From positions 153,507 through 217,506 of the forward strand of contig JBKQOZ010000063.1 of assembly GCA_052326345.1 (NCBI GenBank): 64,000 nucleotides of DNA, read 5' to 3'. Shown here one piece after another: positions 12,556-36,232 of this stretch. The notes beneath the pieces are model-generated. The model did no database searches. It was not told where the DNA came from and saw nothing but the letters and a program-made list of their open reading frames with translations. Both the position numbers and the translations under genes were made by a program. The stretch is from Steroidobacteraceae bacterium (GTDB lineage: Bacteria > Pseudomonadota > Gammaproteobacteria > Steroidobacterales > Steroidobacteraceae). Each line of letters opens with the position of its first letter. Positions within the stretch are counted from its first letter, which is position 1.

Positions 12556-12605
12556 CGCCCGTTCCAGCGCAGCGGCAAGCGAGTCAGACCGCGCGGGTCG
12601 AGTCC

Positions 12606-13768: not shown

Positions 13769-14092
13769 CTACTCGACGATCTCGTCGATCTGGATCTGCG
13801 GCATCGAGTTGGTGAAGTTCGGAACATCCGCGATGAGCGTGGCGGCGTGCTTCGCCGCCGCCTCGTCGAAGGCACGCTGCGAGCCGATCCAGATGTTGAT
13901 GACGGCCACGTACGGCACCGGCTCGCCGTCCGGGGTCGCGGCGCCGCGGCGCAGCTCGAGCCTGGCGATGCCCTCGCCGTAGAGCCGCTTGATGAGAGCG
14001 GCGTGGTGCTCGCGATAGTAGTCGAAGTCGAATGTCACGCCGGGCGTGTTGGCATACAGCACGGTGATGCAGCGGCGGGCGGTTGCGGTCAT
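13769..14092 (-). CDS. EthD family (TIGR02118-like) small protein
   Basis: The 107-aa protein reads [27 protein letters not shown]...[19 protein letters not shown], which matches my recollection of the EthD/TIGR02118 consensus. Its ATG overlaps the upstream oxygenase stop (ATGA). Confidence 0.6.
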
Positions 14093-15552
14093 GGTGTTTC
14101 CTTGAGGCGGCTCGCGTCCGCCCAGTTGCCGTGCAGGGCGGAGCGCAGACGGAACGGCAGTTTGGCCCTGGCGAGCGGGCCCTCGGCAATGCGCCTGGCA
14201 TCGAAGATGCCGAGGTCGGAGTAGTTCGTCACCACGTTGTCGAGCACGGCGAGGAGGTAGCCGTCGCCTTCCGCCGCGCCCGGCGTGCGCGGCACGAAAC
14301 AGGGCTCCTGAACGATGGTCTGCGATCCGGCCCACCAGGTCGTCTGTTCATTCACGGTAAAATCGATGTGTGCGAGCGAATTCATGATCATCCCCGAGGC
14401 GCGGCCCCCCGGGCCGTCGAACGGCTTTTGAACATCGGATACGAGCAGCCAGCCGTGGCGCTGCGGCTGGGTGGCATAACGGTCGTCGATCCTCGGAAAT
14501 TCGCCGAACAGTTCGGTCAGGCGCTGCGACTTTTCAAAGGCGTCGCCCGAGGAGGCCATGTCGACCGTCCAGCGGGTGAGAAAGCTCATCGCCTCGAGCG
14601 GGTTGAACGGCGCACCGCGCACGTCGGGAAAAAAGGGAAACATATTGTTCTTTGCGACGGGCGTGTCGAAATAAACGCGGGTGCCGTCGTTGAAGGCGTT
14701 CATGACGTGGCTGGCGAACAAAGTCGGCGACTTGAACCAGCGCATGGCGCGCGCATCGCCGTGGCGCGGCAGCACGCCGAGATAGACCGGCAGCGAGGTG
14801 TCGAACCCGAAGTGCGGCAATCCCGCCTTCAGGCGCTCCCAGGAGCTCACGATCGGTACGACGTGAAACACGGCGTAGTCCTGGGTGAGGCCGAAATCGT
14901 GCATCATGCAGTAGTACGGCGCTTCGAACCACGTCTCCAGGAGCAGCTCTCCTGTGGGGCTGATCTCCATGTAGTGGCAGTCGCGCGTCAACAAGCCCTT
15001 GGCCGCATAGCCGAACGCGCACATATTGCCGGTGAGCGGATCGATCTTCGGATGGGCGCAGAAGGTCTGCCCGTGCATCTTGCCGCCGAAGTCGGTATAG
15101 CCCTCGGTATCGAGCGTCAGAGGGTCCATGAGCAGGGCGGGACTGTCCTCCTTGAGGGCGAACAATTTTCCCGCGTGCACGAGGACATTGGTGTTGGCGG
15201 TGCCGCGAATCTTGCCGCGCACGGATTCCTCGTCGGTGAGCGGATTGCGATATGCGCCGAACAGTGAGCGCTCGGCGCGGCGCTCCAGCTTCCACTTGTC
15301 GGTCTGCGCGTAGCGCTGCCGGAAGTCGATCTTGCCGCCGCGGAAGTGAAACAGGGCGATCATTCCGTCGCCGTTGAAAAACTGATCGTTCTCGAACAGC
15401 GGCGGGAACTGCGCATCCGGATGCACCCGGTGATAAGTCCCATTGAGCTGCGCGGGCAATTCGCCCTCGATCTCGACATCGTGAATGTCGCCCTCGAAGC
15501 GCACCGGGCGCAAGGTGCCGGTGAAGCCGCGTGTGTTAGGAAAGTGGGCCAT
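14089..15552 (-). CDS. Carotenoid-cleavage-oxygenase family enzyme, lignostilbene-alpha,beta-dioxygenase-like
   Basis: The 487-aa protein starts [39 protein letters not shown] and contains [25 protein letters not shown] and conserved His positions typical of RPE65/LSD enzymes. Confidence 0.85.
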
Positions 15553-15623: not shown

Positions 15624-16601
15624 CTAGCCGTGCACATCGTGGCGGCAGCCGCCGCCGCAGCCGGCATCGCGGGGATCCTGCCGGCTCTGCGTGAGCCGAA
15701 CCACGAGCTCGCGCAGCCACGCGTGAGCCGGATCCGATTCGTTGCGCTTATGCCACAGCAGGATTTCGTGCATCGTGGGGGTCTCGACCGGCAACGGAAA
15801 GGTCTTGATCGGCATCGTCGCGCTGACCATATGCGCCACCCGCTCGGGCAGCGTGGCGATCATCCGGGTGCCGCGCAGCACCAGCGGCAGATGCAGCAGA
15901 CTCGGCACCGTGATGTGTACCTGCAGGTCGATGTCCAGCAAGCGGCGAACCAGTTCCTGGGCGGATGCCGTATAGCCATTGGGCCGTCCGAACACATGCG
16001 GAAGCGAAAAATACTGCTCGGCGGTGATGTTGTCGCCGACGGTGGGATGGTCGCGGTCGACGGCGCAGATCCAGCGTACCGGTCGCAGCCGCACGCTGCG
16101 CAGGGTGTCGGGAAAGGCGCGCGCCTCGAACAGCCGCAGGCTGTCGAGACACAGGCACAGGTCGACATCGCCGTATTCGAGCCGGCTCAGCGCCGTCTGC
16201 GTCACCAGCTCGATGTTGATGCGGATTCCGGGGGCCTCGCTCGAGACGCGCTCCAGCAGTGCCGGCAGCAGGTCGGGCACCGCTTCCTCGGACATGATCA
16301 GGGTGAACTCGCGCTGCGTCGTCGCCGCCGTAAAGGTCGGCTGGGTGCCCAGGGTCGCCTGGATCAGCAGCAGCGCCTCGCGCACCGGCTCGACCAGTGA
16401 TTGGCCGCGCGGCGACAGCTCCATGTCCCGCCCGACTCGGATCAGCAGCGGATCGCCGAAATAGTCCCGCAGCCGGTGCAGCGCTGCGCTCATCGCGGGC
16501 TGAGACACGAAGACCTTCTCGGCGGCACGCGTGATGTTCTTCTCGCGCAGCAGCGTGTCGAGGGCAATCAACAGGTTGAGATCGAAGCGATGAAACTGCA
16601 T
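15624..16601 (-). CDS. LysR family transcriptional regulator (NodD-like)
   Basis: The N-terminal HTH reads MQFHRFDLNLLIALDTLLREKNITRAAEKVFVSQPAMSAALHRLR. It is about 325 aa and is divergent from the operon starting at 16746. Confidence 0.85.
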   Translation of the reverse strand: MQFHRFDLNLLIALDTLLREKNITRAAEKVFVSQPAMSAALHRLRDYFGDPLLIRVGRDMELSPRGQSLVEPVREALLLIQATLGTQPTFTAATTQREFTLIMSEEAVPDLLPALLERVSSEAPGIRINIELVTQTALSRLEYGDVDLCLCLDSLRLFEARAFPDTLRSVRLRPVRWICAVDRDHPTVGDNITAEQYFSLPHVFGRPNGYTASAQELVRRLLDIDLQVHITVPSLLHLPLVLRGTRMIATLPERVAHMVSATMPIKTFPLPVETPTMHEILLWHKRNESDPAHAWLRELVVRLTQSRQDPRDAGCGGGCRHDVHG

Positions 16602-16745
16602 GCACGGCGCCGGAGGTGACAGCCGCCATCTTAGCAGATCAGGGGGGCGACAAATGCGGGCTGTGCCGGCGTGTTGCGCTTTGGGTGGAGCGCGTTTTCC
16701 CGGAGGGTCGAGCGCAATGCGCGCTGCGGCGGCTACAAGGGGGGC

Positions 16746-17495
16746 ATGCTTGAACTCTACCATGCCGAGCCGCTGGCGAATTCGATGAAGTGCCTGCTGT
16801 GTTTGAAGGAGAAGGGACTCGAATTCGTGAGCCATTACGTCGATCTTTTGCGCTTCGAGCAGCACAGCCCGGAATTCCTCAAGCTCAACCCCAATGGACA
16901 GGTTCCCGTGCTGGTGCACGACGGCGCGGTGATCACCGAGTCGACGGTGATCAACGAGTATCTCGAGGATGTGTTCCCGGACGTGCCGCTGCGGCCGAAT
17001 AATCCGGTGGAGCGCGCGCGGATGCGCATCTGGAGCAAGTTCGTGGACGAGTACTTCTGCCCGGCGCTCAGCATGTGGGGCTGGCATTTAATGGTGCGGC
17101 GGGTCGCGAAAAGCCTGGGCGAGAACGAACTCGACAAGGTGCTCGAGCGCATCCCGTTGAAGGAGCAGCGCGACAAGTGGGCCACCATCGCCGGCGAATC
17201 CTTCACCGAGGCGCAGCTGGCCGATTCGAAGCGCAAGCTCTGCGTGTCGATCGAACGCATGGAGAAGATCCTGGCGAATTCCCGATGGCTCGCGGGTTCC
17301 TCGTACTCGCTCGCGGACGTGAACAGCTACTCGATGGTCGCCGGCGTGCCGCGCATGTTTTCCGACATCATGAATCCGGGGGCGACGCCGCTCGCATGCG
17401 CGTGGCTCGACGCCATGAATGCACGGCCGGCCGTCCGGGCGGCGCTCGCGATGCCCAACAAAGTGCCCGAAGCCCTGCGAACCTTCGGCGGCTGA
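16746..17495 (+). CDS. Glutathione S-transferase, LigF-type beta-etherase-like
   Basis: By eye it aligns along its whole length with my recollection of Sphingobium SYK-6 LigF. Shared segments include LELY..EP.ANS.K, FEQHSPEF.K.NP.GQVP.L.HDG.VITESTVI.EYLEDVFP, LRP..P..RA.MR.W.K.VDEYFC and WLAG..YSLAD. Confidence 0.8.
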   Translation: MLELYHAEPLANSMKCLLCLKEKGLEFVSHYVDLLRFEQHSPEFLKLNPNGQVPVLVHDGAVITESTVINEYLEDVFPDVPLRPNNPVERARMRIWSKFVDEYFCPALSMWGWHLMVRRVAKSLGENELDKVLERIPLKEQRDKWATIAGESFTEAQLADSKRKLCVSIERMEKILANSRWLAGSSYSLADVNSYSMVAGVPRMFSDIMNPGATPLACAWLDAMNARPAVRAALAMPNKVPEALRTFGG

Positions 17496-17507
17496 GGAGT
17501 TATATTC

Positions 17508-18605
17508 ATGAAACCGCCGTATCGCGCCGACCAGGTCGGCAGCCTGCTGCGCCCGCGACGCCTGGCGGACGCGCGCGCGCAGTTCAAGCAGGGAGGCCTA
17601 TCCGCCGATGCAGTGCGTCAGATGGAAGACGATTGCATCCGCGCCATCGTCCGGCGGCAGGAGTCGACCGGCCTGCGCTCGATCACCGACGGCGAGCTGC
17701 GCCGCGACTACTGGCACATCGATTTTCTGCGGCAGCTCGACGGCGTGAGCATCGTCGCGATGCCGGGTCAGAGCCGCTTCGGCGGCACCGAAGAGCAGCC
17801 GCCGATGGCCACCGTGACCGGAAACATCGGCTGCACGCAGCCGATCATGGCCGACGCATTCGCCTTCCTCAGACAGGTGACGACACAGACCGCCAAAATG
17901 ACCATTCCCTCGCCCTCCATGCTCTACATGCGCGGCGGGCGCGGCGCGGTGTCGAGTAAGATCTATCCGGAGCTTGCCGAGTTTTGGCATGACGTTGCTC
18001 TCGCCTACCAGCATGCCATCCGCTTTTTGGCGGATCGCGGCTGCACTTACCTGCAACTCGACGACGTCTCGTTCGCATATCTGTGCGATGCGAATTTTCG
18101 CGAGGGCTGCCGCCGCAACGGCGATGATCCGGACACGCTGCCCCGCACCTATGTGGGCGCCATCAATGCGGCGCTGCGCAACCGCCCCGCGGGTATGACG
18201 ATCACGATGCACACCTGCCGCGGCAACTTCAAGAGCTCCTGGGTTGCCGAGGGCGGCTACGAGAGCGTGGCGGAAGCCATGTTTTCGGCCGATGTCGATG
18301 GATTCTTCATGGAATTCGATTCCGCGCGCGCCGGCTCGTTCGAGCCGCTGCGCTATCTGCCCGACGGAAAAAAGGTGGTGCTCGGCCTGGTGACGACGAA
18401 GCAGGGCGCCATCGAAAACGAGGACGAAATCAAGAGGCGCATCGATGCCGCAGCCGGGTTTGTGCCGCTGGACCGCCTGTGTTTGTCGCCGCAATGCGGA
18501 TTCTCGAGCACGCATCACGGCAACGCGGTCTCCGAGGAGGAGCAGTGGCGCAAGCTCGAATTGGTGGTTCGGGTCGCGCGCGACGTCTGGGGCGAGGAGC
18601 GGTAG
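17508..18605 (+). CDS. Cobalamin-independent methionine synthase (MetE) C-terminal-domain family protein
   Basis: The 365-aa protein starts ..YRADQVGSLLRP as in MetE-like (YxjG/YxjH-type) proteins. Probable Zn ligands lie in ..MHTCRGN.. and ..LSPQCGFS... Confidence 0.75.
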   Translation: MKPPYRADQVGSLLRPRRLADARAQFKQGGLSADAVRQMEDDCIRAIVRRQESTGLRSITDGELRRDYWHIDFLRQLDGVSIVAMPGQSRFGGTEEQPPMATVTGNIGCTQPIMADAFAFLRQVTTQTAKMTIPSPSMLYMRGGRGAVSSKIYPELAEFWHDVALAYQHAIRFLADRGCTYLQLDDVSFAYLCDANFREGCRRNGDDPDTLPRTYVGAINAALRNRPAGMTITMHTCRGNFKSSWVAEGGYESVAEAMFSADVDGFFMEFDSARAGSFEPLRYLPDGKKVVLGLVTTKQGAIENEDEIKRRIDAAAGFVPLDRLCLSPQCGFSSTHHGNAVSEEEQWRKLELVVRVARDVWGEER

Positions 18606-18609
18606 GCGC

Positions 18610-20112
18610 ATGAATGCCCAGCTGATATCCGATGAGACGGCCGCGCGAGTGCGTGCATTTACCCAGCATCCGCGCGAGCTGCTGATCGCCGGTCGCTGGC
18701 GCCCCGCGGCCTCGGGCGCTTCCTTCGAAGTGATCGATCCGGCGACGGGGAGCGCATTCGCACGCGCCGCCGCGGGAGACGCCGCCGACGTCGACGCCGC
18801 GGTGGCGGCCGCCCGCACGGCGTTCGAGTCGCCGCCATGGAGCAATTCGACGCCCGCGTGGCGGGCCCGGCTGCTGCTGCGTCTGGCCGAGCTGATCGAG
18901 GCGAACGGCGAGGAGCTCGCCCTGCTCGAGACCCTCGACAACGGCATGCCGTTTCGCATGGCGCGCATGGTTGCCGCCTTCGGCGCCGCGGAAAGTCTGC
19001 GCTATCACGCCGGCTGGGCCACCAAGATCGGCGGGGAGACGATCAATCTGAGCGTGCCCGGGGAGTGGCACGCCTATACGCTGCGCGAGCCGGTGGGCGT
19101 GGTCGGGCAGATCGTGCCGTGGAATTTTCCGCTCGCCATGGCGGTGGCGAAAATTGCGCCCGCGCTGGCGGTAGGCTGCACCGTGGTGCTGAAGCCTGCC
19201 GAACAGACGCCCCTCAGCACCGTGCGCCTCGGTGAACTGATTCTGGAGGCGGGGATTCCCTCGGGTGTGGTCAACATCGTCACCGGCTACGGCGAGACCG
19301 CCGGCCGCGCGCTGGTCGCGCATCCTGGGGTGGATAAGATTGCGTTTACCGGATCTACGCCGGTGGGCAAAGAGATCCTGCGGGCGTGCGCCGGCAACCT
19401 GAAGCGCGTGACGTTGGAGCTCGGCGGCAAATCGCCGGTGTTCATTTTACCGGACGCGGCAATTGGCCCGGCCACCGACGTGGCGGCGCGCGGAATCTTC
19501 ATGAACACCGGGCAGGTTTGCGCGGCGGGCTCGCGGCTGTTCGTGCATGAGCGGATCTTCGATCAGGTCGTGGAGGGAGTGGTGGAGCGCGCGCGAGCCT
19601 TGCGGGTCGGCGCGGGGACGGATCCGGCGACCGACATGGGTCCCGTCGTTTCCGAGGAGCAGCGAAAGCGGGTGACGGGATACATACGCGCGGGAATCGA
19701 AGAAGGCGCGCGTATTTTGACCGGAGGAGGCCAGATTCCGGGTCCCGGATATTTCGTCGAACCGACGGTGCTTGCCGGCACCACCGCCCGGATGAAAGTG
19801 GTGCGCGATGAGATTTTCGGGCCGGTCCTTTGCGCCATGTCGTTCGCGGACTGCGACGTCGATGTGCTCGCGCGCATGGCCAACGATACTGAATACGGCC
19901 TGGCGGCCAGCATCTGGACACGCGATATCAGCGCCGCGCATCGCCTTGCACGGCGCATCAAGGCGGGTTCGGTGCGCATCAATACGCCGGGCTCGGTCGA
20001 TCCGGCGCTGCCGCTCGGCGGCTACAAGCAGTCCGGGTGGGGCAGAGAGAACGGCCGAGAAGGCACGGAAATCTACACCGAACTCAAGTCGGTTACCGTC
20101 GGCTTAAGTTGA
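18610..20112 (+). CDS. NAD(P)-dependent aldehyde dehydrogenase
   Basis: It has VGQIVPWNFPL, the catalytic Glu in TLELGGKSP, the catalytic Cys in NTGQVCAAGSRL, and the EEIFGPV-type motif DEIFGPV. Confidence 0.9.
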   Translation: MNAQLISDETAARVRAFTQHPRELLIAGRWRPAASGASFEVIDPATGSAFARAAAGDAADVDAAVAAARTAFESPPWSNSTPAWRARLLLRLAELIEANGEELALLETLDNGMPFRMARMVAAFGAAESLRYHAGWATKIGGETINLSVPGEWHAYTLREPVGVVGQIVPWNFPLAMAVAKIAPALAVGCTVVLKPAEQTPLSTVRLGELILEAGIPSGVVNIVTGYGETAGRALVAHPGVDKIAFTGSTPVGKEILRACAGNLKRVTLELGGKSPVFILPDAAIGPATDVAARGIFMNTGQVCAAGSRLFVHERIFDQVVEGVVERARALRVGAGTDPATDMGPVVSEEQRKRVTGYIRAGIEEGARILTGGGQIPGPGYFVEPTVLAGTTARMKVVRDEIFGPVLCAMSFADCDVDVLARMANDTEYGLAASIWTRDISAAHRLARRIKAGSVRINTPGSVDPALPLGGYKQSGWGRENGREGTEIYTELKSVTVGLS

Positions 20113-21767
20113 GGGTTCGCCGGGTGGATACCTTCGACTACGTCATCGTCGGCGCCGGCTCCGCCGGCTGCGTGTTGGCGAATCGATTGAGCGCCGAATC
20201 CGCAGTGCGCGTGCTGCTGGTCGAGGCGGGCGGCTCGGACGATCGCTTTCTGATCAGCATGCCGCTGGGTTTCCTGCGTGCGGTGTTCAATCCGGAGTTC
20301 TCCTGGGGCTACGCAAGCGAACCGGAGCCCACGCTCGGCGGCCGCTCGCTGTGGCTGCCGCGCGGCAAGGTCCTGGGCGGCTCCTCGTCGATCAACGGCA
20401 TGTTCTTCATGCGCGGACATTCCGCCGATTTCGACGGGTGGGCGGCGATGGGCTGCACCGGCTGGAGCTACGCCGAGGTGTTGCCGTATTTCAAGCGCAT
20501 GGAGAGCAGCTGGCGCGGCGCCGGCCGCTGGCATGGGGGCGATGGACCGTTGCCGGTGGCGGCGATCGACAGCCGACGTCTGCTGCACGAGCCTCTGATG
20601 CAGAGTGCGGCCGCGGCCGGGTTTTCGATCACCGATGACATTCACGGCGAGTGCGAAGAGGGCTTCGCACACGGCGAGATCACGGTGGATGCGCGCGGGC
20701 GGCGCGCGAGCACCTCGCGTGCTTACCTGCGCCCGGCGCTGCATCGCCCGAACCTGGTACTGGCCACCGGCGCGCTCGTGACGAGAGTGCGCATCGAGCG
20801 CGGCGCGGCGAGAGGCATCGAATACCGGCAGGACGGGCGCAGCGTCGAAGCGCGCGCGTCCCGCGAGGTGATCCTGTGCGGCGGCGCGTTCAATTCGCCG
20901 CATCTGCTGATGCTGTCCGGCGTCGGGCCGGCAGACGAATTGCGGGCCCACGGGATCGGCGTGCATGCCGATCTTGCGGGGGTCGGCGGCAATCTGTCGG
21001 AGCACGCGCGCGTGCCGATCGAGTTCGCAACCCGCGGCGACTGCTCGTTCCTGGGCGAGCTGCGCGCCGATCGCATCGCCCGCTCCGTGCTGCGCTGGCT
21101 GTTCTTCGGCACCGGTCCGTGCGCCACGCAGATCAACAGCTGCAACATCGTCGTACGCACGGATCCGAAGCTCTCGCAGCCAGACATTCAGCTCATGTGC
21201 AATCCGGTGCGGATGGACGCGAAGATCTGGTGGCCGTTCATCGGCCCGCACCAGGAGCATCGCGTTACGGCCGATGCGGTGGTGCTGCACCCGGAGTCGC
21301 GCGGCCGCGTCAGCCTGCGATCCAAAGATCCGCAGGACAAGCCGCGCATCCAGCTGAACGTGCTCGCGACCGAGGCGGATCTGGCGGCCGCACGCCGCGG
21401 GGTGAGACTGGCGCGGCGAATTTATGCCACGCCGCCGCAGTCGGCCCTCATCGCACGGGAAACAGCTCCGGGGGCCGGCGTCGAGTCGGACGCCGATCTG
21501 TGCGCGTACATCCGCGCGCACGCGTCGGTCACGCAGCACCCGGTCGGCTCGTGTGCGATGGGCGGGGGCGCCCAAGCGGTGCTCGATCCGCAACTGCGTG
21601 TGCGCGAAATCGCGGGCCTGCGCGTGGTCGACGCCTCGGTGATGCCAACCGTGCCCGGCGCCAACACCAATGCGGCGGTGATCATGATCGCTGAAAAGGC
21701 CGCCGATCTGATCCTGGGCCGATCCGTCGCCCCGGATCACGCGCGAAGCGCCGGGGCGCTCTCTTAA
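20109..21767 (+). CDS. GMC family FAD oxidoreductase (HpvZ/choline dehydrogenase-like)
   Basis: It has FDYVIVGAGSAGCVLANRL, GKVLGGSSSINGMFF and HPVGSCAMG...VVDASVMPTVPGANTNAA. The start is either TTG 20109 (overlapping the ALDH stop) or GTG 20124. Confidence 0.85.
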   Translation: MRVRRVDTFDYVIVGAGSAGCVLANRLSAESAVRVLLVEAGGSDDRFLISMPLGFLRAVFNPEFSWGYASEPEPTLGGRSLWLPRGKVLGGSSSINGMFFMRGHSADFDGWAAMGCTGWSYAEVLPYFKRMESSWRGAGRWHGGDGPLPVAAIDSRRLLHEPLMQSAAAAGFSITDDIHGECEEGFAHGEITVDARGRRASTSRAYLRPALHRPNLVLATGALVTRVRIERGAARGIEYRQDGRSVEARASREVILCGGAFNSPHLLMLSGVGPADELRAHGIGVHADLAGVGGNLSEHARVPIEFATRGDCSFLGELRADRIARSVLRWLFFGTGPCATQINSCNIVVRTDPKLSQPDIQLMCNPVRMDAKIWWPFIGPHQEHRVTADAVVLHPESRGRVSLRSKDPQDKPRIQLNVLATEADLAAARRGVRLARRIYATPPQSALIARETAPGAGVESDADLCAYIRAHASVTQHPVGSCAMGGGAQAVLDPQLRVREIAGLRVVDASVMPTVPGANTNAAVIMIAEKAADLILGRSVAPDHARSAGALS

Positions 21768-21792
21768 TCCGGGCCCGAATCGCGGAGCAACC

Positions 21793-22293
21793 ATGTCGAC
21801 ATCCCATTGGAGCGAACCGGTCACAAAACTCAGCCTCGTGCTCGAGCACGTGTTCGATGTCCGCATCGACTTCCATCAGCGGCTGATTTTCGATCCAATG
21901 CCGGGCGGGCAGAAGCAGGCGTACACGTCGGTGAAGAGCGGCAAGGTGAGCGGACCGCGGCTCAACGGCACGGTGCTTGACTACAGCGGCGCCGACTGGC
22001 CGATCGTACGCTGCGACGGAGTCGTCGAACTCAACGCACACTACGTGCTCGAGGCCGATGATGGCGCCCGCATCTACATCCGCAACATGGGCTACGTGTA
22101 CGGTGCCCGCTCCCCGGAGGTTGCCGCGCGTGCGCCGGCCAATCCCGCCGCCGGCGGATATTTTCGCTGCACTCCGTATTTTCGAGCTCCTGAAGGGCCC
22201 CACGACTGGCTCAATCGCACCGTGATCGTGGGCGGCGGCGAGCGCCACTCGGCTCCCGATCACACATTGTTTCGATATTACGCCGTGCTATGA
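21793..22293 (+). CDS. DUF3237 (UPF0311) family protein
   Basis: The 166-aa protein has the pattern ..GPRL.G.V...GADW...R.DGV.EL.A.Y.LE.DDGA.IYI.N.G... ..YFR..P.F.AP.G...WLN. and is paralogous to 48539-49015. Confidence 0.7.
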   Translation: MSTSHWSEPVTKLSLVLEHVFDVRIDFHQRLIFDPMPGGQKQAYTSVKSGKVSGPRLNGTVLDYSGADWPIVRCDGVVELNAHYVLEADDGARIYIRNMGYVYGARSPEVAARAPANPAAGGYFRCTPYFRAPEGPHDWLNRTVIVGGGERHSAPDHTLFRYYAVL

Positions 22294-23918
22294 CAGGGGC
22301 CGACTACATCGTTATCGGCGGCGGGTCCGCCGGCTGTGTGCTGGCCGCGCGCCTGTCGGAGGATCCGAGCGTGCAGGTGGTGTTGATCGAGGCTGGCTCC
22401 ACCGACGCCGGACGCTTAAATCTGCGCATACCTCTCGCCTGGCGCGACACGTTCATGGATCCCGCCGTAAGCTGGGGTTTTGTCTCGGAGCCCGAGCCTT
22501 ATGCCGACGGCCGAGTCGTGCCGGCGCCGCGCGGCAAGGTGCTGGGCGGGTCGGCCTCGGTCAACGGCATGATGTACGCGCGAGGCTGCGCGGCCGATTA
22601 TGACGATTGGGCCAGGGCGGGGCTCGAAGGCTGGAGTTTCGCCGACGTGCTGCCGTACTTTCGCCGTTCGGAGAGCAATTGGCGCGGCGCGTCCGCGTAT
22701 CACGGCGGCGATGGTCCGTTGACGGTATCGCGGCACGTCCCGGATGCGTTCATCTACCCGCGCCTCATGGCGGCTGCCAGGGACTTGGGCTGTGCGCAGC
22801 TCGAGGATTTCCATGGAGCGCAGGCGGAGGGATTCGCCGTGCCGGATTTCACCGTGCACCGCGGCGAGCGCGCCAGCACTTCAACGCGCTTCCTGCACCC
22901 GGTCCTGCACCGGCGGAACTTGACCGTGATCACCGACGCGTTGGCCCACCGGCTGCTGCTTCAAGGGTCGCGTGCGCGTGCGGTCGAGTACGGCGCGAAG
23001 GGCGGTGTGCGGCAGCTGCACTGCGACGGCGAAATCGTGCTCGCCGCCGGCGCGTTCAACTCTCCGCAGCTGCTGCTGCTCTCGGGTGTGGGTCCGACCG
23101 GCGGAATCGAGCCGCACGGCATCCGGGTGGCCCATGATCTTCCCGGCGTCGGCGCCAATCTGCAGGAGCACCAATCGATCGCCATGATCTATCGGGCACG
23201 CGGCGCCATCACGTTCGACTCGCGATTGCGGGCCGACCGGCTGGCTGTCGCGTTGCTGCGCTGGCTGCTGTTTCGCACGGGAGCCGTTGCCGGCCTGCCG
23301 GTGTCGGCTCAGGGCTTCGTGCGCACTGCGCCCGGCCTCGATCGGCCGGACCTGCAGATGCTGGTGAGTCCGGTGTCGATGATGGCGCGACCGTGGTTTC
23401 CTGGCTGGCGCCCCGGGGCGGGGCACGTGTTCTCGGCGGCGAGCGTGCTGCTGCATCCGGCGAGCCGGGGTTCGGTGTCGCTGCGCTCCGGCGAGCCGAC
23501 GGCGGCGCCGCGCATCGTGCTCAACTTGCTGCAGGCTCCGCAAGACCGGGCGGCATTGCGCCGCATCATCCGCTTCGTGCGGCGCTATTTTGCGACGCCT
23601 GCGGCGCGAGAGCTGGTGCGCGAGGAGACCATCCCCGGCGAGGCCGTCGAGAGCGATGAGGCACTCGACGCGTTCGTGCGCGCGAACGTGCGCACCGCCA
23701 TGCATCCGGTCGGGACCTGCGCGATGGGCACCGGCGATGACGCAGTGGTAGACGCGCAGCTGCGAGTTCGCGGCATCGACGGGCTTCGCATTGCGGACGC
23801 ATCAGTCATGCCGAGCATCATTGGCGGAAACACCAATGCACCTGTCATCATGATTGCCGAGAAGGCGGCCGATCTGATTCGCGGCCGCGCCACCTCGTCG
23901 AGGACGCCGATTGGCTAA
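22290..23918 (+). CDS. GMC family FAD oxidoreductase
   Basis: ATG 22290 overlaps the DUF3237 stop (ATGA). Motifs include DYIVIGGGSAGCVLAARLSED, GKVLGGSASVNGMMY and HPVGTCAMG...IADASVMPSIIGGNTNAP. Confidence 0.85.
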   Translation: MTGADYIVIGGGSAGCVLAARLSEDPSVQVVLIEAGSTDAGRLNLRIPLAWRDTFMDPAVSWGFVSEPEPYADGRVVPAPRGKVLGGSASVNGMMYARGCAADYDDWARAGLEGWSFADVLPYFRRSESNWRGASAYHGGDGPLTVSRHVPDAFIYPRLMAAARDLGCAQLEDFHGAQAEGFAVPDFTVHRGERASTSTRFLHPVLHRRNLTVITDALAHRLLLQGSRARAVEYGAKGGVRQLHCDGEIVLAAGAFNSPQLLLLSGVGPTGGIEPHGIRVAHDLPGVGANLQEHQSIAMIYRARGAITFDSRLRADRLAVALLRWLLFRTGAVAGLPVSAQGFVRTAPGLDRPDLQMLVSPVSMMARPWFPGWRPGAGHVFSAASVLLHPASRGSVSLRSGEPTAAPRIVLNLLQAPQDRAALRRIIRFVRRYFATPAARELVREETIPGEAVESDEALDAFVRANVRTAMHPVGTCAMGTGDDAVVDAQLRVRGIDGLRIADASVMPSIIGGNTNAPVIMIAEKAADLIRGRATSSRTPIG

Positions 23919-25200
23919 GCATCGCTTTTACGGTTGGACCATGCTCGCGGCCCTATGGGGAGTCATGTTCCTCAACCTGGGCTTTCCGGCGTACGGTCCG
24001 GCGGTCATCAATGCCGCCATGGCCAAGGCCGTCGGACTGAATCGCGAGGCGCTGGGCGACATGTTCTCGGTGTACATGATCATGTCCGGGCTGCCGGGCC
24101 CCCTGGTGGCGATGAGCGTCAATCACTTCGGCGTGCGCAAGACGCTGGTGCTGGGCAGCTCGCTCATCATCGTAGGCTCGCTGCTGATGGCCACGGTGGT
24201 CGCGGGCGCGCTCGGCGCGATGCTCTGCTTCGGCCTGCTGGTCGGTGCGGGGGTGGCTACGGGCGCCGCTTTGGCCTCACAGGCGGGATTGGCGCGCTGG
24301 TTCGTGCGCCGCCGGTCCCTGGCGCTGTCGGTGCTGTACTCGGCGGGTGCGATCGGCGGTTTCGTGGCGGCGCCGCTGCTGAACAGGCTGATCGAGGCGA
24401 GCGGAACTTGGCGGGCGGGATGGTGGCTGCTCGGAATCCTCTCCGCCGCAGCGATGTGCATCGCCCTGGTCTTCGTCCGCGAGCGGCCAGAAGAGATGGG
24501 CCAGGTTGCGGACGGTTTCGCGCCGCCCGCCGCCGATGGCGCGGCCGCGCCGGACTCGCGGCCGTGGTTCGTCACCCGCCGAGAATGGAAGTTCCGCGAC
24601 GCCGTTCGCAACGCCACATATTGGGTGCTGTTGACCTCGCTGATCGGCTGCAGCGGCGGCTATACCCTGTTTCTGGCGCACGGAGTGGTGCACCTGCAGG
24701 ATCTCGGCCATTCGGCTCGCATCGGCGCCTGGGCGGTTGGCGTGATGACGGTGTCGGGTCTCATCGGCAAGTTGATTCTCGCGACGCTGGGCGACCGCAT
24801 CGACCCGCGCTATATCTTTGCGCTTTTCATGGCAGTGTTCGCGGTCGGACTCGTGGTGATCGTCGATGCGCGGGCGTTCTGGCAGGTGATCCTGTTCGCG
24901 GTTTGTCTGGGCATCGGTTTCGGCGGCGGCCTGGTGTGCCTGATGTCGGTGTTGAGCAATTACTACGGCACCCGCACGTTCGCCTCGCTCGCCGGACTCG
25001 CCGTCGCCATCAACACGACGCTATCGGCGATCGCGCCGAAAGTGGCCGGCCGCCTCTTCGACCAGGGCGTCGGCTACGGCGCCACGTTCTATTTTCTCGC
25101 GGCATGGTGCTTCGTCGGCGCCGTGGCGCTGTGCTTCACGCGCCGGCCGGGGACCGAGATGCCGATTGGGACGGGCAGCAACGAGTACGGAGCGCTGTGA
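23911..25200 (+). CDS. MFS transporter
   Basis: About 12 hydrophobic segments are visible across 429 aa. The start is either TTG 23911 (overlapping the GMC stop) or ATG 23941. Confidence 0.8.
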   Translation: MAKHRFYGWTMLAALWGVMFLNLGFPAYGPAVINAAMAKAVGLNREALGDMFSVYMIMSGLPGPLVAMSVNHFGVRKTLVLGSSLIIVGSLLMATVVAGALGAMLCFGLLVGAGVATGAALASQAGLARWFVRRRSLALSVLYSAGAIGGFVAAPLLNRLIEASGTWRAGWWLLGILSAAAMCIALVFVRERPEEMGQVADGFAPPAADGAAAPDSRPWFVTRREWKFRDAVRNATYWVLLTSLIGCSGGYTLFLAHGVVHLQDLGHSARIGAWAVGVMTVSGLIGKLILATLGDRIDPRYIFALFMAVFAVGLVVIVDARAFWQVILFAVCLGIGFGGGLVCLMSVLSNYYGTRTFASLAGLAVAINTTLSAIAPKVAGRLFDQGVGYGATFYFLAAWCFVGAVALCFTRRPGTEMPIGTGSNEYGAL

Positions 25201-27194
25201 TGACCAAGGTCAACCAAGGCGATTTGCTGTGGACGCCGAGCGCCGAGCGGCTGGCGCAGGCTCATTTGACGCATTATCTGCAATGGCTCGGCGCGCGCGG
25301 CCGCCACTTCGATTCGTACACCGCTCTGTGGCAGTGGTCGATCGACGAGCAGGACGCATTTTGGGGCTCGCTGTGGGAATACTTCGATGTGCGCGCATCG
25401 CGGCCGTACGAGCGCGTGCTTGGATCGCGCACGATGCCGGGGGCCGAATGGTTTCCCGGGGCCAGGCTGAACTATGCGGAACATGCCCTGCGTCACGAGC
25501 GCGAGGGGGCCGTGGCGCTCATGTACTTGAGCGAGCGGCGCAGCCTGATGGAACTCTCCTGGACCGACCTTGGAGGACAGGTGCGCAGACTCGCGACCCG
25601 GATGCGTGCGCTCGGCGTCGCGCCCGGCGATCGTGTGATTGCGTATCTGCCGAATTCTCCGGAGGCGGTCATCGCGATGCTGGCGACGGTGAGCATCGGC
25701 GCCATCTGGGCGAGCTGCGGACCGGACTTCGGGCCGCGCGGCGTGGTCGACCGGTTCGGGCAGCTGGCGCCGAAACTGGCATTTTGCGTGGACGGTTATC
25801 ACTACGGCGGCAAGCTCTTCGATCGGCGGCCGGAACTCAAGGCCATATTGAATGCGCTGCCCTCCGTGGAGCAGGTCATTTATCTGCGGCAGCTGGAACC
25901 CTCGAATGACACGCCGTTGAGCGCGCATACGCTGTTCTGGGAAGAGGCGCTCTCGGGTCCCGACATTGCGCGCGAGTCGTTCCGCTTCGAGCAGGTGCCG
26001 TTCGCGCACCCTTTGTGGATCCTGTTTTCCTCCGGCACCACCGGCTTGCCCAAGCCGATCGTCCATTGCCACGGCGGAATGGTCCTGGAGCAGATCAAGT
26101 CGCTCAGGATTCACATGGACGTGCATCCCGGCGAGCGCATGTTCTTCTTCACGACCACCGGCTGGATGATGTGGAATTTTCTGGTGAGCGCGCTGCTGGT
26201 CGACGTGATCCCCGTGCTGTACGACGGCAATCCGGCGTATCCGGAAGGGGACGTACTGTGGGCCATGGTCGAGCGCACGGGCGCCAGTTTCTTCGGGGCG
26301 AGCCCGACCTACGTAAGCATTCTCGAGAAGGCGGGCATCGTGCCGAAGGATCGGTTCGATCTGTCGCGACTGAAGTCAGTGCTGCTGGCGGGCTCACCGG
26401 TCACCGCCGAATGCATGGCGTGGTTCTATCGCTGCGTGAAATCCGACATCTGGGCGCACTCGGGCAGCGGCGGCACGGATCTGTGCGCTGGGATCGTCGG
26501 CGGCATCGTCATCTTGCCGCTGTACGCCGGCGAGATCCAGGGCCGTCAGCTCGGCATGGCGGCCTACGCGTTCAATGAGCAGGGCCAGGCGGTCATCGAC
26601 GAGGTCGGCGAGCTGGTCATCACCAAGCCCGTACCGTCGATGCCCGTCGGCTTCTGGAACGATGCGGACGGCACGCGCTACCGGGAATCATATTTCGACC
26701 AGTATCCGGGCGTGTGGCGGCACGGCGATTTCTTCAAGTTGAACCGCCGCGGCGGATGCTTCGTGCTGGGCCGTTCCGACGCGACCTTGAACAGGCACGG
26801 TGTGCGCATCGGCACCGCGGAGGTGTATCGCGCGCTCACCGAGGTGCCGGAGATCGAGGACGCGTTGATCGTCAATCTCGACCTCAAGAACGGCGGTTTC
26901 TTCATGCCGCTGTTCGTCAAGCTGCACCACGGGTTCGAACTCGACGAGGCGCTGGTGGAGAAGGTGCGCGCCCGAATGCGCAAGGCCTATTCGGCGCGCC
27001 ACGTGCCGGACAAGATTTATCAGGTGGCCGCGATACCGTACACCCTGACCGGAAAGAAGATGGAGGTGCCGGTGCGCCGGATTCTGATGGGCGTGCCGGT
27101 CGAGAAGGCGGCGAATCGCGCGGCCATGGCCAACGTCGAGTCGCTGGATTACTTCATTCGCTACGCCCGCGAGCAGCAGGACTACCGGCTGTAG
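25200..27194 (+). CDS. Acetoacetyl-CoA synthetase-like acyl-CoA ligase (ANL superfamily)
   Basis: The 664-aa protein has the N-terminus LLWTPS..R......HYL.WL........SY..LW.WS......FW typical of AACS. The AMP-binding motif is ILFSSGTTGLPKPIVH. The C-terminal segment is GKKMEVPVRRIL. Its ATG shares one nt with the MFS stop. Confidence 0.85.
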   Translation: MTKVNQGDLLWTPSAERLAQAHLTHYLQWLGARGRHFDSYTALWQWSIDEQDAFWGSLWEYFDVRASRPYERVLGSRTMPGAEWFPGARLNYAEHALRHEREGAVALMYLSERRSLMELSWTDLGGQVRRLATRMRALGVAPGDRVIAYLPNSPEAVIAMLATVSIGAIWASCGPDFGPRGVVDRFGQLAPKLAFCVDGYHYGGKLFDRRPELKAILNALPSVEQVIYLRQLEPSNDTPLSAHTLFWEEALSGPDIARESFRFEQVPFAHPLWILFSSGTTGLPKPIVHCHGGMVLEQIKSLRIHMDVHPGERMFFFTTTGWMMWNFLVSALLVDVIPVLYDGNPAYPEGDVLWAMVERTGASFFGASPTYVSILEKAGIVPKDRFDLSRLKSVLLAGSPVTAECMAWFYRCVKSDIWAHSGSGGTDLCAGIVGGIVILPLYAGEIQGRQLGMAAYAFNEQGQAVIDEVGELVITKPVPSMPVGFWNDADGTRYRESYFDQYPGVWRHGDFFKLNRRGGCFVLGRSDATLNRHGVRIGTAEVYRALTEVPEIEDALIVNLDLKNGGFFMPLFVKLHHGFELDEALVEKVRARMRKAYSARHVPDKIYQVAAIPYTLTGKKMEVPVRRILMGVPVEKAANRAAMANVESLDYFIRYAREQQDYRL

Positions 27195-27199
27195 AAGCC

Positions 27200-27802
27200 A
27201 TGGTGCGCAATGTCATCTTCGACATCGGCGGCGTCGTACTCGAATGGAATCCTGACGAGATTCTCAAGAGCTTTTACGCCGATCCCGACGCGCGTGCGGC
27301 GATGAAGAGCGCGCTGTTCCTTCATCCGGATTGGATCCTGCTGGACCGTGGCATGCTCGAGGAATCCGCAGCGCTCGCGCGGCTCGAGCAGCGGACCGGC
27401 CGACCGGAGCAGGAGCTGACCGGGCTGTTTGCAGCGATCCGCGGATCGCTGCGGCCCAAATTGGATACGATCGCGCTGCTGGAGGCCCTCGCGCGGCGCG
27501 GCGTGCCGCTCTACTGCCTGTCGAACATGCCGGCGAGCACCTTTGCGCACCTGCGTGAGCGGCACGAATTCTGGGCGTGGTTTCACGGGATCGTCATTTC
27601 GGGCGAGGTCAAGATGGCCAAACCGGAGCAGGAAATTTTCCGGTATCTGCTGCGCCGGTACGGATTGCCCGCGGCCGAAACGGTTTTCATCGACGATCAT
27701 CCGCCGAACATCGAGGCCGCGCGCTCGCTCGGCCTGCATGCCATTCGATTCCGCGACGCACGCCAATGCGAAATTGAACTGGAGCGCTTGCTGCAGAATT
27801 AG
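27200..27802 (+). CDS. HAD superfamily hydrolase (subfamily IA)
   Basis: Motif I is VIFDIGGVV, with a downstream SN and a K...DD pattern (FIDDHPPNIEAA). It lies 5 nt after the ligase gene. Confidence 0.75.
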   Translation: MVRNVIFDIGGVVLEWNPDEILKSFYADPDARAAMKSALFLHPDWILLDRGMLEESAALARLEQRTGRPEQELTGLFAAIRGSLRPKLDTIALLEALARRGVPLYCLSNMPASTFAHLRERHEFWAWFHGIVISGEVKMAKPEQEIFRYLLRRYGLPAAETVFIDDHPPNIEAARSLGLHAIRFRDARQCEIELERLLQN

Positions 27803-27817
27803 CGCCGCCCGCGCGCC

Positions 27818-29185
27818 TCACCATCGCCGCTTCGGCCGATCACGGTACGGGAACCACCAGGGTTTGCGCGCGATCACCTCGGCGACATGAAGCGCCTGTT
27901 CACCCGCCAGCGCGCGGCGGACACCGCGGTGGCGCATGCCGCCGAATGCCTGCGCACCGGTCGCCGGGTCGTTGATCCTGAAGGTGCCCGTCCTGTACGG
28001 CTCCACCGCCCGCAGTGCGCCCTGCACGTCGCTCGTGTAGATCGAGGCGACGAATACCGACCCTGGTTCACCGGCGGATGCACCGGCCAACCGCAGCGCT
28101 TCCGCGGCGTCGGCCACGGGCGTGACGGTGATCACCGGGCCCAGGATCTCCTCGCGGGTTGGGACGCCGCCCGGACGAACATTCGACAGGATCGTCGGCT
28201 GGAAAAAATAGCCCGGCAGGCCCGACGGCTTGAAGCGCCGGCCGCCGAGGATGAGCGTTGCGCCGCCGCGCAGCGAGCGCCCGACCTGGTCTTCCACGCG
28301 GTGCGCGGCCTCGAGGGAAATCAGCGGTCCCAAGTCCGTCGCCGATTTGATCGGATCGTCGACGTCGAGAAAACCCACGCAGTGATGCATGCGCTCCACG
28401 AACTCGTCGGCGATCGGGCGCTCGACGTAGATGTGATTGCCCGAAGTGCAGGCCTGACCCCCGTTGCAGAGTCGTGCCCAGGCGATGCCCGGCACGCTGG
28501 CGTCGAGGTCGGCGTCCCTGCAGACGATGAACGAGTCGACGCCGCCGAGCTCGAGGTCGACCCGTTTGTGCGCTGCCGCCGCCGCGATGCTGTGTCCGAC
28601 CTCGGCGGAACCTGTGAATCTCACCACGCCGACATCGGGATGATCGACGAGCGCGCGGCCGGTCGCCGGGCCGCCGGTAACGACGTTGAGCACGCCTGCG
28701 GGCAGCGAGTCGAAGAATTCGGCGAGCCGCAGGCTCGAGAGCGGGTTTTGGTGCGGCGGCTTGCAGACCACCGTCTGGCCCGCGGCAATCGCGGGCGCGA
28801 CCGTGCACGCCATCAGCAGCAGCGGAAAATTGAACGGCATGATCGCGGCGACGACGCCGGCGGGCTGCCCGCCCGGCGAGCCGGTGTCATGCGGGGCCTG
28901 CGCCGCACAGGCTTCGAACGCGGCGGCGGCCGCATCGATGCAATCGGCCGATTCGCACAGCGGCTTGCCCGTCTCGCGTGTCAGGAGGGTCGCCAGTTCG
29001 CCCTCGCGGTTGCGGATGCGGGCTCCGATCTCGCTGAGCAGTGCCGCCCGATCCGCCGCGGCCACGTTCCGCCATTCGGATTGCGCGGCGCGTGCCGTTG
29101 CGACGGCGCGCGCGACTTCGCCGGGCCGGCAGTCCGGCACCGTGCCGAGCGGTTCCAGCGTCGCCGGATTTAGAATCTCGAGCAT
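27818..29185 (-). CDS. Aldehyde dehydrogenase family protein
   Basis: Start is MLEILNPATLEPLG. Motifs include MPFNFPL, DLELGGVDS and NGGQACTSGNHI (catalytic Cys). It is 455 aa. Confidence 0.85.
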   Translation of the reverse strand: MLEILNPATLEPLGTVPDCRPGEVARAVATARAAQSEWRNVAAADRAALLSEIGARIRNREGELATLLTRETGKPLCESADCIDAAAAAFEACAAQAPHDTGSPGGQPAGVVAAIMPFNFPLLLMACTVAPAIAAGQTVVCKPPHQNPLSSLRLAEFFDSLPAGVLNVVTGGPATGRALVDHPDVGVVRFTGSAEVGHSIAAAAAHKRVDLELGGVDSFIVCRDADLDASVPGIAWARLCNGGQACTSGNHIYVERPIADEFVERMHHCVGFLDVDDPIKSATDLGPLISLEAAHRVEDQVGRSLRGGATLILGGRRFKPSGLPGYFFQPTILSNVRPGGVPTREEILGPVITVTPVADAAEALRLAGASAGEPGSVFVASIYTSDVQGALRAVEPYRTGTFRINDPATGAQAFGGMRHRGVRRALAGEQALHVAEVIARKPWWFPYRDRPKRRW

Positions 29186-29237
29186 GACTGGCGCTATGAT
29201 GCCCCGGCAATCCTCGCGGCTGCGAGCGTCACGGTTC

Positions 29238-34613: not shown

Positions 34614-34649
34614 CGGCCGACCAGCGGCGGAAGACGCGCTCATGATTTG

Positions 34650-36208: not shown

Positions 36209-36232
36209 TGCTTCTGCAAAGAAAGCCGCGCG

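Follow-up and report, generated by a model that had tools for sequence, protein, structure and literature searches.

A modular LysR-linked operon with a predicted role in lignin-dimer catabolism in an uncultured Steroidobacteraceae-like gammaproteobacterium

We examined a 64,000-nucleotide stretch of DNA (hereafter the window) from a metagenome-assembled genome (MAG) labeled Steroidobacteraceae bacterium (GCA_052326345.1, contig JBKQOZ010000063.1, positions 153,507 to 217,506), in which a LysR-type regulator gene stands divergent from nine co-directional genes. We think it fairly probable that this locus is a LysR-controlled, modular operon for lignin-derived dimers, serving beta-5 (phenylcoumaran) catabolism of the type known from Sphingobium lignivorans SYK-6, with PhcC/PhcD and PhcF/PhcG steps, in an uncultured Steroidobacteraceae-like gammaproteobacterium. 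What we observed are gene families, synteny, modularity, and substitutions in the acyl pocket of a CoA ligase; which substrates are used, how enantiomers pair with enzymes, and what regulator and ligase do are inferred from them. A first-pass annotation had also proposed a catabolic operon for lignin-derived aromatics under a divergent LysR regulator, which families, synteny, and neighboring genes support, and its oxidation of a primary alcohol to the acid by GMC enzymes and an aldehyde dehydrogenase (ALDH) is likely chemistry. Its choice of the beta-hydroxypropiovanillone (HPV) route is not supported: a DUF3237 gene, an adjacent lignostilbene-alpha,beta-dioxygenase (LSD) gene, and another operon with a LigW/LigW2-like gene, an ALDH, and a second DUF3237 gene fit the beta-5 route far better. 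Open reading frame listing and translation, with Pfam and NCBIfam scans, gave the ten genes of the locus and the pair behind the regulator:

15624-16601, minus strand: LysR-type regulator (PF00126 and PF03466), divergent from the operon
16746-17495, plus strand: LigF-type glutathione S-transferase (GST), accessory module
17508-18605, plus strand: MetE catalytic-domain-only protein of 365 residues (PF01717 only), accessory module
18610-20112, plus strand: ALDH (PF00171, 567 bits), first gene of the ALDH-GMC-DUF3237-GMC cassette
20124-21767, plus strand: GMC1, flavoprotein oxidoreductase (PF00732 and PF05199), GTG start
21793-22293, plus strand: DUF3237 beta-barrel protein (PF11578, 110 bits)
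22290-23918, plus strand: GMC2, flavoprotein oxidoreductase (PF00732 and PF05199), ATGA overlap with the DUF3237 gene
23941-25200 (alternative TTG start at 23911), plus strand: major facilitator superfamily (MFS) transporter of the monocarboxylate/oxalate-formate type (PF07690)
25200-27194, plus strand: AMP-forming CoA ligase of the acetoacetate-CoA ligase (AACS) family, 664 residues (NF002937, TIGR01217)
27200-27802, plus strand: HAD-IA hydrolase (PF00702, TIGR01509), rare accessory gene
14089-15552, minus strand: LSD, downstream of LysR on the same strand
13769-14092, minus strand: EthD-family protein of 107 residues (TIGR02118, 60 bits against a cut-off of 30.5), 4-nt overlap with the LSD gene

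In the pathway that we propose, GMC1 and GMC2 would oxidize the hydroxymethyl group on the dihydrofuran ring of a phenylcoumaran dimer, with acids of the dehydrodiconiferyl alcohol (DCA) series, DCA-C type, as substrates and possibly one DCA-C enantiomer per enzyme, and the ALDH would finish the oxidation to the carboxylate. The DUF3237 enzyme, probably helped by a paralog encoded at 48539-49015, would remove CO2 and open the ring to give a 4-hydroxystilbene, which the divergently encoded LSD would split into vanillin and a 5-formyl-substituted phenylpropanoid. The second operon, with its ALDH and LigW-like decarboxylase, would trim the 5-formyl product, and a LigM enzyme would demethylate vanillate. 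This cassette would be plugged into an older, constant unit of LysR, control region, MFS monocarboxylate importer, and AACS-family ligase, the last of which would activate a 3-aryl C3 acid (ferulate or vanilloyl acetate); the LigF-type GST, MetE-like, and HAD genes would be optional add-ons.

Genes for oxidation, decarboxylation, and cleavage

The GMC-DUF3237-GMC core and the adjacent LSD gene point to a known oxidize-decarboxylate-cleave logic, which explains them better than the HPV route does. In SYK-6, PhcC and PhcD oxidize the ring hydroxymethyl of DCA-C; PhcF, PhcG, and PhcH then remove CO2 from DCA-CC, which yields the stilbene DCA-S; LsdD splits this into vanillin and 5-formylferulate; and FerD and LigW2 turn 5-formylferulate into ferulate (PMC12447483; PMC12997858). 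PhcG and PhcF are the enantiospecific decarboxylases of that phenylcoumaran pathway (PMC12607616). DCA-CC is 8-5' diferulate in its benzofuran form.

The DUF3237 gene, which the first-pass annotation had counted as uncharacterized, belongs to the family of the decarboxylases PhcF/PhcG/PhcH and PinX, whose step lies between those of the GMC oxidases and of an LSD (PMC12607616, PMC12447483, PMC12997858). PinX carries a DUF3237 domain and is 42% identical to PhcG and 38% to PhcF, and the GMC oxidase PinY shares 39% identity with PhcC (PMC12607616). In the window protein, the PF11578 match (110 bits) spans residues 17-165, essentially the whole protein, and the gene is flanked by two GMC genes with the LSD gene 6 kb off. 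Its AlphaFold model is a beta-barrel (pLDDT 81) whose top structural matches are the DUF3237 structures 3G7G, 4PUX, and 3C5O. We predict from family and context that it is a ring-opening decarboxylase of the PhcF/PhcG/PinX family. We also considered a likeness to phenolic acid decarboxylases and set it aside, as none came up in the fold search; apart from DUF3237 structures, its matches were PhnH and barrels of the Diels-Alderase type. The resemblance of the predicted barrel to PhnH, to the Diels-Alderases PloI4 and PyrI4, and to a dirigent protein is weak.

GMC1 and GMC2 are 50% identical to each other, and both have the GMC_oxred_N and GMC_oxred_C domains, giving a two-paralog architecture. 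GMC oxidoreductases are functionally diverse, and the best solved relative is a choline dehydrogenase (379 bits); a PhcC/PhcD-like role for GMC1 would follow from context. The ALDH has StyD as its best equivalog, below the cut-off, and is 75-93% identical in 22 related loci, with a GMC gene beside it every time. The LSD scores 850 bits against the NCBIfam equivalog NF053778 (cut-off 800), 812 bits to LsdA (6OJR), and 659 bits to SYK-6 LSD4 (6XM6). It carries His167, His218, His282, and His474; three of these correspond to the iron ligands named for LSD4, His167/218/284 (PMC8191317), and the fourth is a putative ligand by position. The product step is predicted to be cleavage of a stilbene into two aromatic aldehydes. 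The EthD gene is probably translationally coupled to the LSD gene, given the 4-nt overlap; we know of no role for EthD proteins in stilbene cleavage.

What points to a beta-5 substrate is a second operon in the window, encoded entirely on the minus strand:

52991-53956, minus strand: AraC regulator
51535-52980, minus strand: ALDH of 481 residues
50455-51501, minus strand: LigW/LigW2-like protein
49046-50458, minus strand: MFS transporter
48539-49015, minus strand: DUF3237 paralog

Against the solved 5-carboxyvanillate decarboxylases, the Amidohydro_2 protein at 50455-51501 reaches 480 bits with LigW (4INF/4QRN) and 477 with LigW2 (4QS5), and the DUF3237 paralog is 38% identical to the operon protein. 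The arrangement is similar to ferD-ligW2 of SYK-6 (PMC12447483), here with a PhcG-like DUF3237 gene attached. The reported substrates of LigW and LigW2, 5-carboxyvanillate and 5-carboxyferulate, come from 5-5 dimers and from DCA, respectively (PMC12997858), and not from beta-1 or beta-beta dimers, which supports the beta-5 assignment. Orthologs of the second-operon ALDH and LigW-like protein recur beside DUF3237 and LSD genes, and in cultured Sphingosinicella sp. CPCC 101087 (locus L048) the whole set (second-operon ALDH, LigW-like, DUF3237, and LSD) lies within 20 kb.

Conserved gene order, mosaic composition, and control region

The layout described by the first-pass annotation, nine tightly spaced co-directional genes divergent from LysR and an LSD-EthD pair behind the regulator on its own strand, was reproduced in coordinates, spacings, and families. 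From the GST gene onward the spacings are 12 nt, 4 nt, 11 nt (or an overlap), 25 nt, the ATGA overlap, 22 nt (or an overlap), a 1-nt TGATG overlap, and 5 nt, and the lysR-GST intergenic region measures 144 nt. Independent gene calls on identical MAG contigs (e.g., GCA_052326715.1, JBKQLD010000030.1) give the same genes, with identical proteins on several, and the closest species-level genomes are labeled Steroidobacteraceae or uncultured Gammaproteobacteria. Close co-directional spacing is by itself ordinary in bacteria; the operon exceeds chance because its gene order is conserved, not because its spacing is tight. The earlier label "NodD-like" for the regulator is not borne out, as its best NCBIfam matches are the BsrA and LeuO types, all under their cut-offs. 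The best NCBIfam matches of the MFS transporter (SfMCT and 2A0111) are likewise both under their cut-offs.

We scanned a genome collection with a DUF3237 alignment, kept the best 80 of 143 hits (SYK-6 not among them), and mapped the window proteins onto these 80 loci by tblastn. A GMC gene is adjacent to the DUF3237 homolog in 45 of the 80 loci, an LSD gene is nearby in 25, and a second DUF3237 gene in 28. The order ALDH-GMC-DUF3237-GMC-MFS-ligase recurs in at least 18 species-level genomes from two clades (55-94% protein identity). The close clade (L009-L018) keeps ALDH-GMC1-DUF3237-GMC2-MFS-ligase at 72-94% identity, and the same order is kept at 55-77% in a second clade (L050, L052, L054, L059, L062, L064, L080, and L083), whose operon has an MFS gene and the other DUF3237 paralog at its start and the ligase at its end. 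The ATGA overlap between the DUF3237 and GMC2 genes is retained in most orthologous loci. Many Alphaproteobacteria, and clade 2 among the gammaproteobacterial loci, have genes of the two DUF3237 paralog types side by side, as SYK-6 has phcG and phcF. The LSD-EthD pair is kept in L009, L010, L012, L013, L014, L017, L091, L101, and L102, the EthD gene being coupled to the LSD gene every time.

Around this core the composition varies. Between the LysR promoter region and the ALDH gene is a variable slot, which is empty in L013, L014, and L018, holds the GST alone in L010, L011, and L017 or the MetE-like gene alone in L009, and holds both in the window, L012, and L016. None of the 80 genome loci has the HAD gene, not even L012, which is 93% identical; in a metagenome scan with ligase-specific motifs its only homolog (68% identity) follows a cassette-bearing operon in L097. 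Traced to other contexts, the MetE-like protein led to operons with MetE, MFS, and ligase genes divergent from LysR that have no GMC or DUF3237 gene, one of them with LSD-EthD behind LysR. The architectures range from LysR divergent from the ligase alone, through MFS-ligase, MetE-MFS-ligase, and GST-MetE-MFS-ligase, to versions with the ALDH-GMC-DUF-GMC cassette, and across all of them LysR is 62-94% and the ligase 65-96% identical. The constant unit in about 110 related loci is LysR and the AACS-like ligase, with the control region and usually the MFS gene. The operon is thus a mosaic: some loci have the ALDH-GMC-DUF3237-GMC cassette and others do not, and the GST, MetE-like, and HAD genes come and go. 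The nine genes are therefore not the single unit that had been proposed: the six-gene order from ALDH to ligase is conserved in genomes, and the full nine-gene order is not. The context of L043, with GST and MetE homologs near a DUF3237 gene, was uninformative. In L016 (CAVQYI010000017.1) the ALDH, GMC2, ligase, and MetE-like genes appear to be split by frameshifts and GMC1 is missing, probably through long-read assembly error or because the copy is decaying.

Among the accessory genes, the GST is 46% identical to SYK-6 LigF (4XT0) over 236 residues (213 bits), and the serine of its N-terminal ANS motif, which we take to be the catalytic residue of LigF-type GSTs, is aligned with that of LigF. 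By homology it is a genuine beta-etherase relative of the LigF type, in keeping with the ether-cleaving GST of the earlier proposal. It scores 28.5 bits against the NCBIfam beta-etherase equivalog NF042997 (cut-off 440), a model that may or may not represent the LigF type. The GST travels with the MetE-like gene in several loci and is present in only some related operons. The MetE-like protein scores 448 bits to NF005085 (cut-off 313) and 365 bits to 1YPX. Against the full MetE model it covers positions 422-727 of 750 with 35.6 bits (cut-off 541), and at 365 residues it is without the N-terminal half, which in the two-domain MetE of about 750 residues holds a folate-binding barrel. H235, C237, E269, and C330 stand at MetE-like spacing and are candidate zinc ligands. 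The protein has thousands of close homologs, and searching the literature for MetE-like proteins with a part in lignin catabolism brought up nothing of relevance. In L092 the MetE-like gene follows an orthologous FadB-like/Amidohydro_2 pair at the place where the window has LigM, a weak hint that it may be a folate-independent aryl-O-methyl transferase. GC and GC3 (GC at third codon positions) of the accessory genes are no different from those of the core and give no compositional sign of recent foreign origin; a known plasmid island was also dismissed, as megablast of the 12-kb region against plasmids returned only short ALDH and GMC fragments.

The intergenic region has two elements of interest within 16602-16745, TTAGCAGAT and the block at 16674-16713:

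16628-16639, no strand assigned: conserved site ATCTTAGCAGAT, core TTA[CGA]CAGAT, candidate LysR recognition site
16674-16713, plus strand: conserved 40-nt block TTGCGCTTTGGGTGGAGCG..T.TTC.C..AGGGTCGAGC, candidate promoter or activation site

The first-pass annotation had pointed to a small palindrome at 16628-16639. The site is present and conserved, but as a 4+4 inverted repeat it is within chance, such a site arising in 38 of 100 window shuffles. Eight of its 12 positions are invariant across 10 orthologous intergenic regions, and in 15 loci the core TTA[CGA]CAGAT is found 28-31 nt away from the start of lysR regardless of the first downstream gene, with one occurrence in the window against 0.11 expected. 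It is credible as an operator because it is conserved, not because it is palindromic, and LysR would presumably bind there. A T-N11-A LysR box was rejected, as the flanking position is unconserved and the dyad is imperfect in most orthologs. The 40-nt block is nearly invariant in the alignment of orthologous intergenic regions (A2) and stands at a fixed distance from lysR in 15 loci, making it a candidate promoter or activation site. Three control-region elements, including ATCTTAGCAGAT and this block, keep fixed distances from lysR whichever gene comes first. A consensus scan for promoters found no promoter-like site, the 16674-16713 block included, and terminator-like sites in such a scan were no commoner than in shuffles.

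The AACS-family ligase and competing explanations

The atypical AACS-family ligase is the one new lead of the locus. It clears the AACS cut-offs (NF002937, 927 bits against 639; TIGR01217, 818 against 521), matches Streptomyces lividans AACS (PDB 4WD1) over its full length at 48% identity, and retains the GWMMWN motif. Aligned to 4WD1 and Salmonella enterica Acs, it has Ala at the positions of Acs Trp414 and Val386, which we take to be acyl-pocket residues. In a family sample of 126 aligned sequences (125 representatives from a 1.8-billion-protein library plus 4WD1), the position of A419 is L/V/I/F/M in 122 and never Ala or Gly, that of A397 is Thr in 103, and the nearby position of G422 is Ile in 67; where the family has Thr, Leu/Val/Ile, and Ile, the window ligase thus has Ala, Ala, and Gly and departs from the family-typical pocket. 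All operon-linked orthologs, including cassette-free ones, share LAGSPVTAE, and nearly all have W-A-[HYG]-S-G-SGGTD; Ala at the Trp414-equivalent position is likewise found in nearly all linked orthologs. Small residues at these three positions suggest an enlarged pocket and a bulkier, probably aromatic, acid substrate.

A further difference from AACS is that this ligase gene sits in aromatic catabolic operons, and LSD, LigW-like, LigM-like, StyD-like ALDH, and alcohol dehydrogenase genes dependent on pyrroloquinoline quinone (PQQ-ADH) neighbor it across architectures. In all architectures these neighbors point to a 3-aryl C3 acid as substrate, and the pocket suggests ferulate or vanilloyl acetate as candidates rather than acetoacetate. 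Ferulate is a candidate as the convergent product of the beta-5 route and coniferyl alcohol oxidation. Between roughly 4,000 and 59,000 of the window, the gene calls annotated with Pfam contain no second adenylate-forming ligase, and tblastn with an Fcs-type ligase from L092 found no homolog in the window, although that search also missed the AACS gene. Precedent for activating an aroyl-acetate (a 3-oxo-3-aryl-propanoate) is the benzoylacetate-CoA ligase Bal of Aromatoleum aromaticum, presumably AMP-forming as well and likened here by description only, which belongs to an acetophenone carboxylation pathway (PMC4729919). Two genes of the window bear on the route to such an acid:

37916-39391, plus strand: StyD-like ALDH (NF045735, 751 bits against 850)
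39403-41544, plus strand: PQQ quinohemoprotein alcohol dehydrogenase (TIGR03075, 623 bits against 480)

They are candidates for upper alcohol-to-acid steps and directly follow the ligase gene in L013, L014, L017, L018, L118, and L121.

A bolder idea, which we consider less likely than not, is that the AACS-like gene represents a previously unrecognized AACS-derived ligase subfamily whose enlarged pocket takes 3-aryl C3 acids. Such an enzyme could be the CoA ligase for vanilloyl acetate (an aroylacetate) that is missing from the lower beta-O-4 pathway, or else a feruloyl-CoA synthetase of a third type, not homologous to the others. Together with LysR it would form a hub for interchangeable dimer cassettes (GMC-DUF3237-GMC, LigF-type GST, and LSD-EthD) in soil Steroidobacteraceae.

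Several points weigh against the beta-5 assignment. The LSD most resembles LsdA/LSD1, an enzyme that works well on lignostilbene and poorly on DCA-S (PMC8191317), so that a beta-1 or other stilbene-forming substrate is possible. Orthology to PhcC/D/F/G, HpvZ, and PinX/Y rests on family, synteny, and pathway completeness rather than on a tree, and the HPV-oxidizing enzymes HpvZ and HpvY share the GMC family (PMC11837543). The ligase clears curated acetoacetate-CoA ligase cut-offs and is also found without the cassette, which makes its link to beta-5 catabolism indirect. The mapping of its pocket leans on homology to Acs and on the residues taken to line the Acs pocket, the proposed route has no place for the MetE-like, EthD, and HAD proteins, and the locus is known from MAG sequences.

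The similarity of the LSD to the lignostilbene-preferring LsdA/LSD1 favors the same logic in another dimer class, namely beta-1 diarylpropanes of the 1,2-diguaiacylpropane-1,3-diol (DGPD) type (gamma-oxidation and decarboxylative dehydration to lignostilbene) or lariciresinol-type beta-beta lignans, as with PinY and PinX. DUF3237 enzymes do span dimer classes (PhcF/G for beta-5, PinX for beta-beta), and a review states that parallel routes in other pathways are still to be found (PMC12997858). The pinoresinol pathway of Novosphingobium rhizosphaerae LY (PMC12607616) has the same three-step logic and the families of PinY (GMC), PinX (DUF3237), and PinU (LSD). However, the window gene calls include no PinW/PinV-type flavocytochrome or PinZ-type reductase, and a DUF3237 paralog shares its operon with a LigW/LigW2-like gene and an ALDH, pointing to beta-5 rather than beta-beta. 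Since two DUF3237 paralog types are also co-operonic in clade 2, which implies one shared pathway, we regard a different dimer class as unlikely. Less likely still is that the ligase and MFS transporter simply take up and activate acetoacetate, a ketone body, as an ordinary pair with no part in the aromatic pathway, next to which the cassette happened to insert. The AACS scores and the occurrence of LysR and ligase without any aromatic cassette are what such a pair would show, but the key pocket position departs from 122-126 of 126 family members and this departure is kept across linked orthologs. Minimal loci, too, are flanked by LigM-like, LSD, LigW-like, StyD-like ALDH, and PQQ-ADH genes, and the cassette stays between promoter and MFS-ligase in two clades diverged to 55-70% identity.

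The first-pass annotation had read the operon as a lower beta-O-4 pathway, in which the GST cleaves the ether, a GMC enzyme takes HPV to vanilloyl acetaldehyde, the ALDH takes this to vanilloyl acetate, and the ligase makes the CoA ester. The operon and the HPV pathway (HpvZ/HpvY, ALDHs, and VceA/VceB; PMC11837543) do share alcohol-to-acid oxidation by GMC and ALDH enzymes, a LigF-type GST, and CoA thioester formation, and the 46% identity of the GST to a beta-etherase agrees with this. Vanilloyl acetate is a 3-oxo acid, suited to an AACS relative with an enlarged pocket; ligase followed by ALDH and PQQ-ADH in minimal loci fits a sequence from alcohol through aldehyde and acid to CoA ester; and the enzymes converting vanilloyl acetate are unidentified in Novosphingobium aromaticivorans F199, which is without VceA/VceB, and incompletely known in SYK-6, which has an additional unidentified enzyme for it (PMC11837543). 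Yet the SYK-6 step is done by VceA, a small acetyl-CoA-dependent enzyme (vceA and vceB fit in 1.5 kb; bioRxiv 10.1101/2022.04.28.489975) unrelated to the 664-residue AMP-forming ligase; a 3-oxo-acid ligase acting on an aromatic acetoacetate analogue is a possible part of that proposal, though not the known way in SYK-6. The HPV pathway has no DUF3237 or LSD enzyme, and the model gives no reason for a DUF3237 gene, a second GMC gene, a neighboring LSD gene, or a paralog operon with a LigW-like gene. Many orthologous operons that keep ALDH-GMC-DUF-GMC-MFS-ligase do not have the GST, and the operon itself has neither a LigD-type C-alpha dehydrogenase nor a LigG/Nu-class glutathione lyase. We judge this explanation the least probable.

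Window context, the SYK-6 regulon, and significance

The window is an island for lignin-derived aromatics, as the second DUF3237 operon, LSD, LigM, GSTs, StyD-like ALDH, PQQ-ADH, and a third GMC gene attest. It begins after motility-type genes at the left end (339-3937; a ParA/MinD-like ATPase and a MotB-like protein), which mark its edge. A cluster at 5200-13751 holds a thiamine pyrophosphate-dependent enzyme, two zinc alcohol dehydrogenases, two short-chain dehydrogenases (SDRs), the third GMC, and a metallo-beta-lactamase-fold protein; the third GMC (9881-11671) is 46-48% identical to GMC1/GMC2, with about 50 extra N-terminal residues in its longest open reading frame. A similar set, with alcohol dehydrogenase, thiamine pyrophosphate-dependent enzyme, and PQQ-ADH, stands beside the MetE-like gene in L092. 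The roughly 10 kb between the ligase and the StyD-like ALDH/PQQ-ADH pair (27200-37900) hold the HAD gene, a convergent ALDH, a 234-residue gene, an MFS transporter, an alpha/beta hydrolase, a Kup potassium transporter, and PadR, and look like an insertion because the pair adjoins the ligase directly in relatives.

Beside the DUF3237 paralog, on the plus strand (47481-48463), are a GFA-family (glutathione-dependent formaldehyde-activating) gene and a 129-residue SnoaL_2/NTF2-like gene. LdpA and PcfL are NTF2-family lyases that release formaldehyde; for the window gene, a search for sequence matches in PDB that might indicate an LdpA/PcfL-type lyase found none that was significant. Tandem GSTs of 255 and 261 residues (56112-57657, minus strand), 40% and 29% identical to the operon GST and flanked by MarR genes, may be an etherase pair of the LigE/LigF or BaeAB type. 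Toward the right end, 58268-62787 (plus strand) encodes a FadB-like hydratase/dehydrogenase, a 290-residue Amidohydro_2 protein, and the LigM equivalog (807 bits against a cut-off of 580); the Amidohydro_2 protein is 83-91% conserved in relatives, often near the ligase.

Set against the beta-5 regulon of SYK-6, where phcD-SLG_09490-phcC, phcH-phcG-phcF, and ferD-ligW2 form operons and lsdD is in the same regulon (PMC12447483), the window shares two GMC oxidases in a GMC-gene-GMC arrangement, paralogous DUF3237 genes, an LSD, and an ALDH with a LigW2-type gene in one operon, a likeness set by family and gene layout and not by measured identity to SYK-6 proteins. It differs in its host, a Steroidobacteraceae-like gammaproteobacterium MAG, in packing oxidases, decarboxylase, ALDH, MFS, and CoA ligase into one operon, and in having a LysR-type regulator where SYK-6 has the MarR-type PhcR. 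PhcCDFG homologs have been reported in 32 Alphaproteobacteria (PMC11323797). What is new here is an organizational and taxonomic variant of the PhcCDFG/LSD route, the route itself being already known. To our knowledge, this beta-5 oxidation-decarboxylation route has been described in sphingomonads only.

Steroidobacteraceae-like Gammaproteobacteria with this enzyme set recur in many soil and peat metagenomes, which widens the range of soil organisms in which turnover of lignin dimers and diferulates would be expected. The gene set is compact and probably self-contained, and could be used for engineering. The atypical ligase is a testable candidate for the activation of vanilloyl acetate or ferulate where VceA/VceB or known feruloyl-CoA synthetases are absent. 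The modular build of these operons, in which exchangeable cassettes sit upstream of one ligase and share one promoter and regulator, illustrates how such pathways are assembled in nature.

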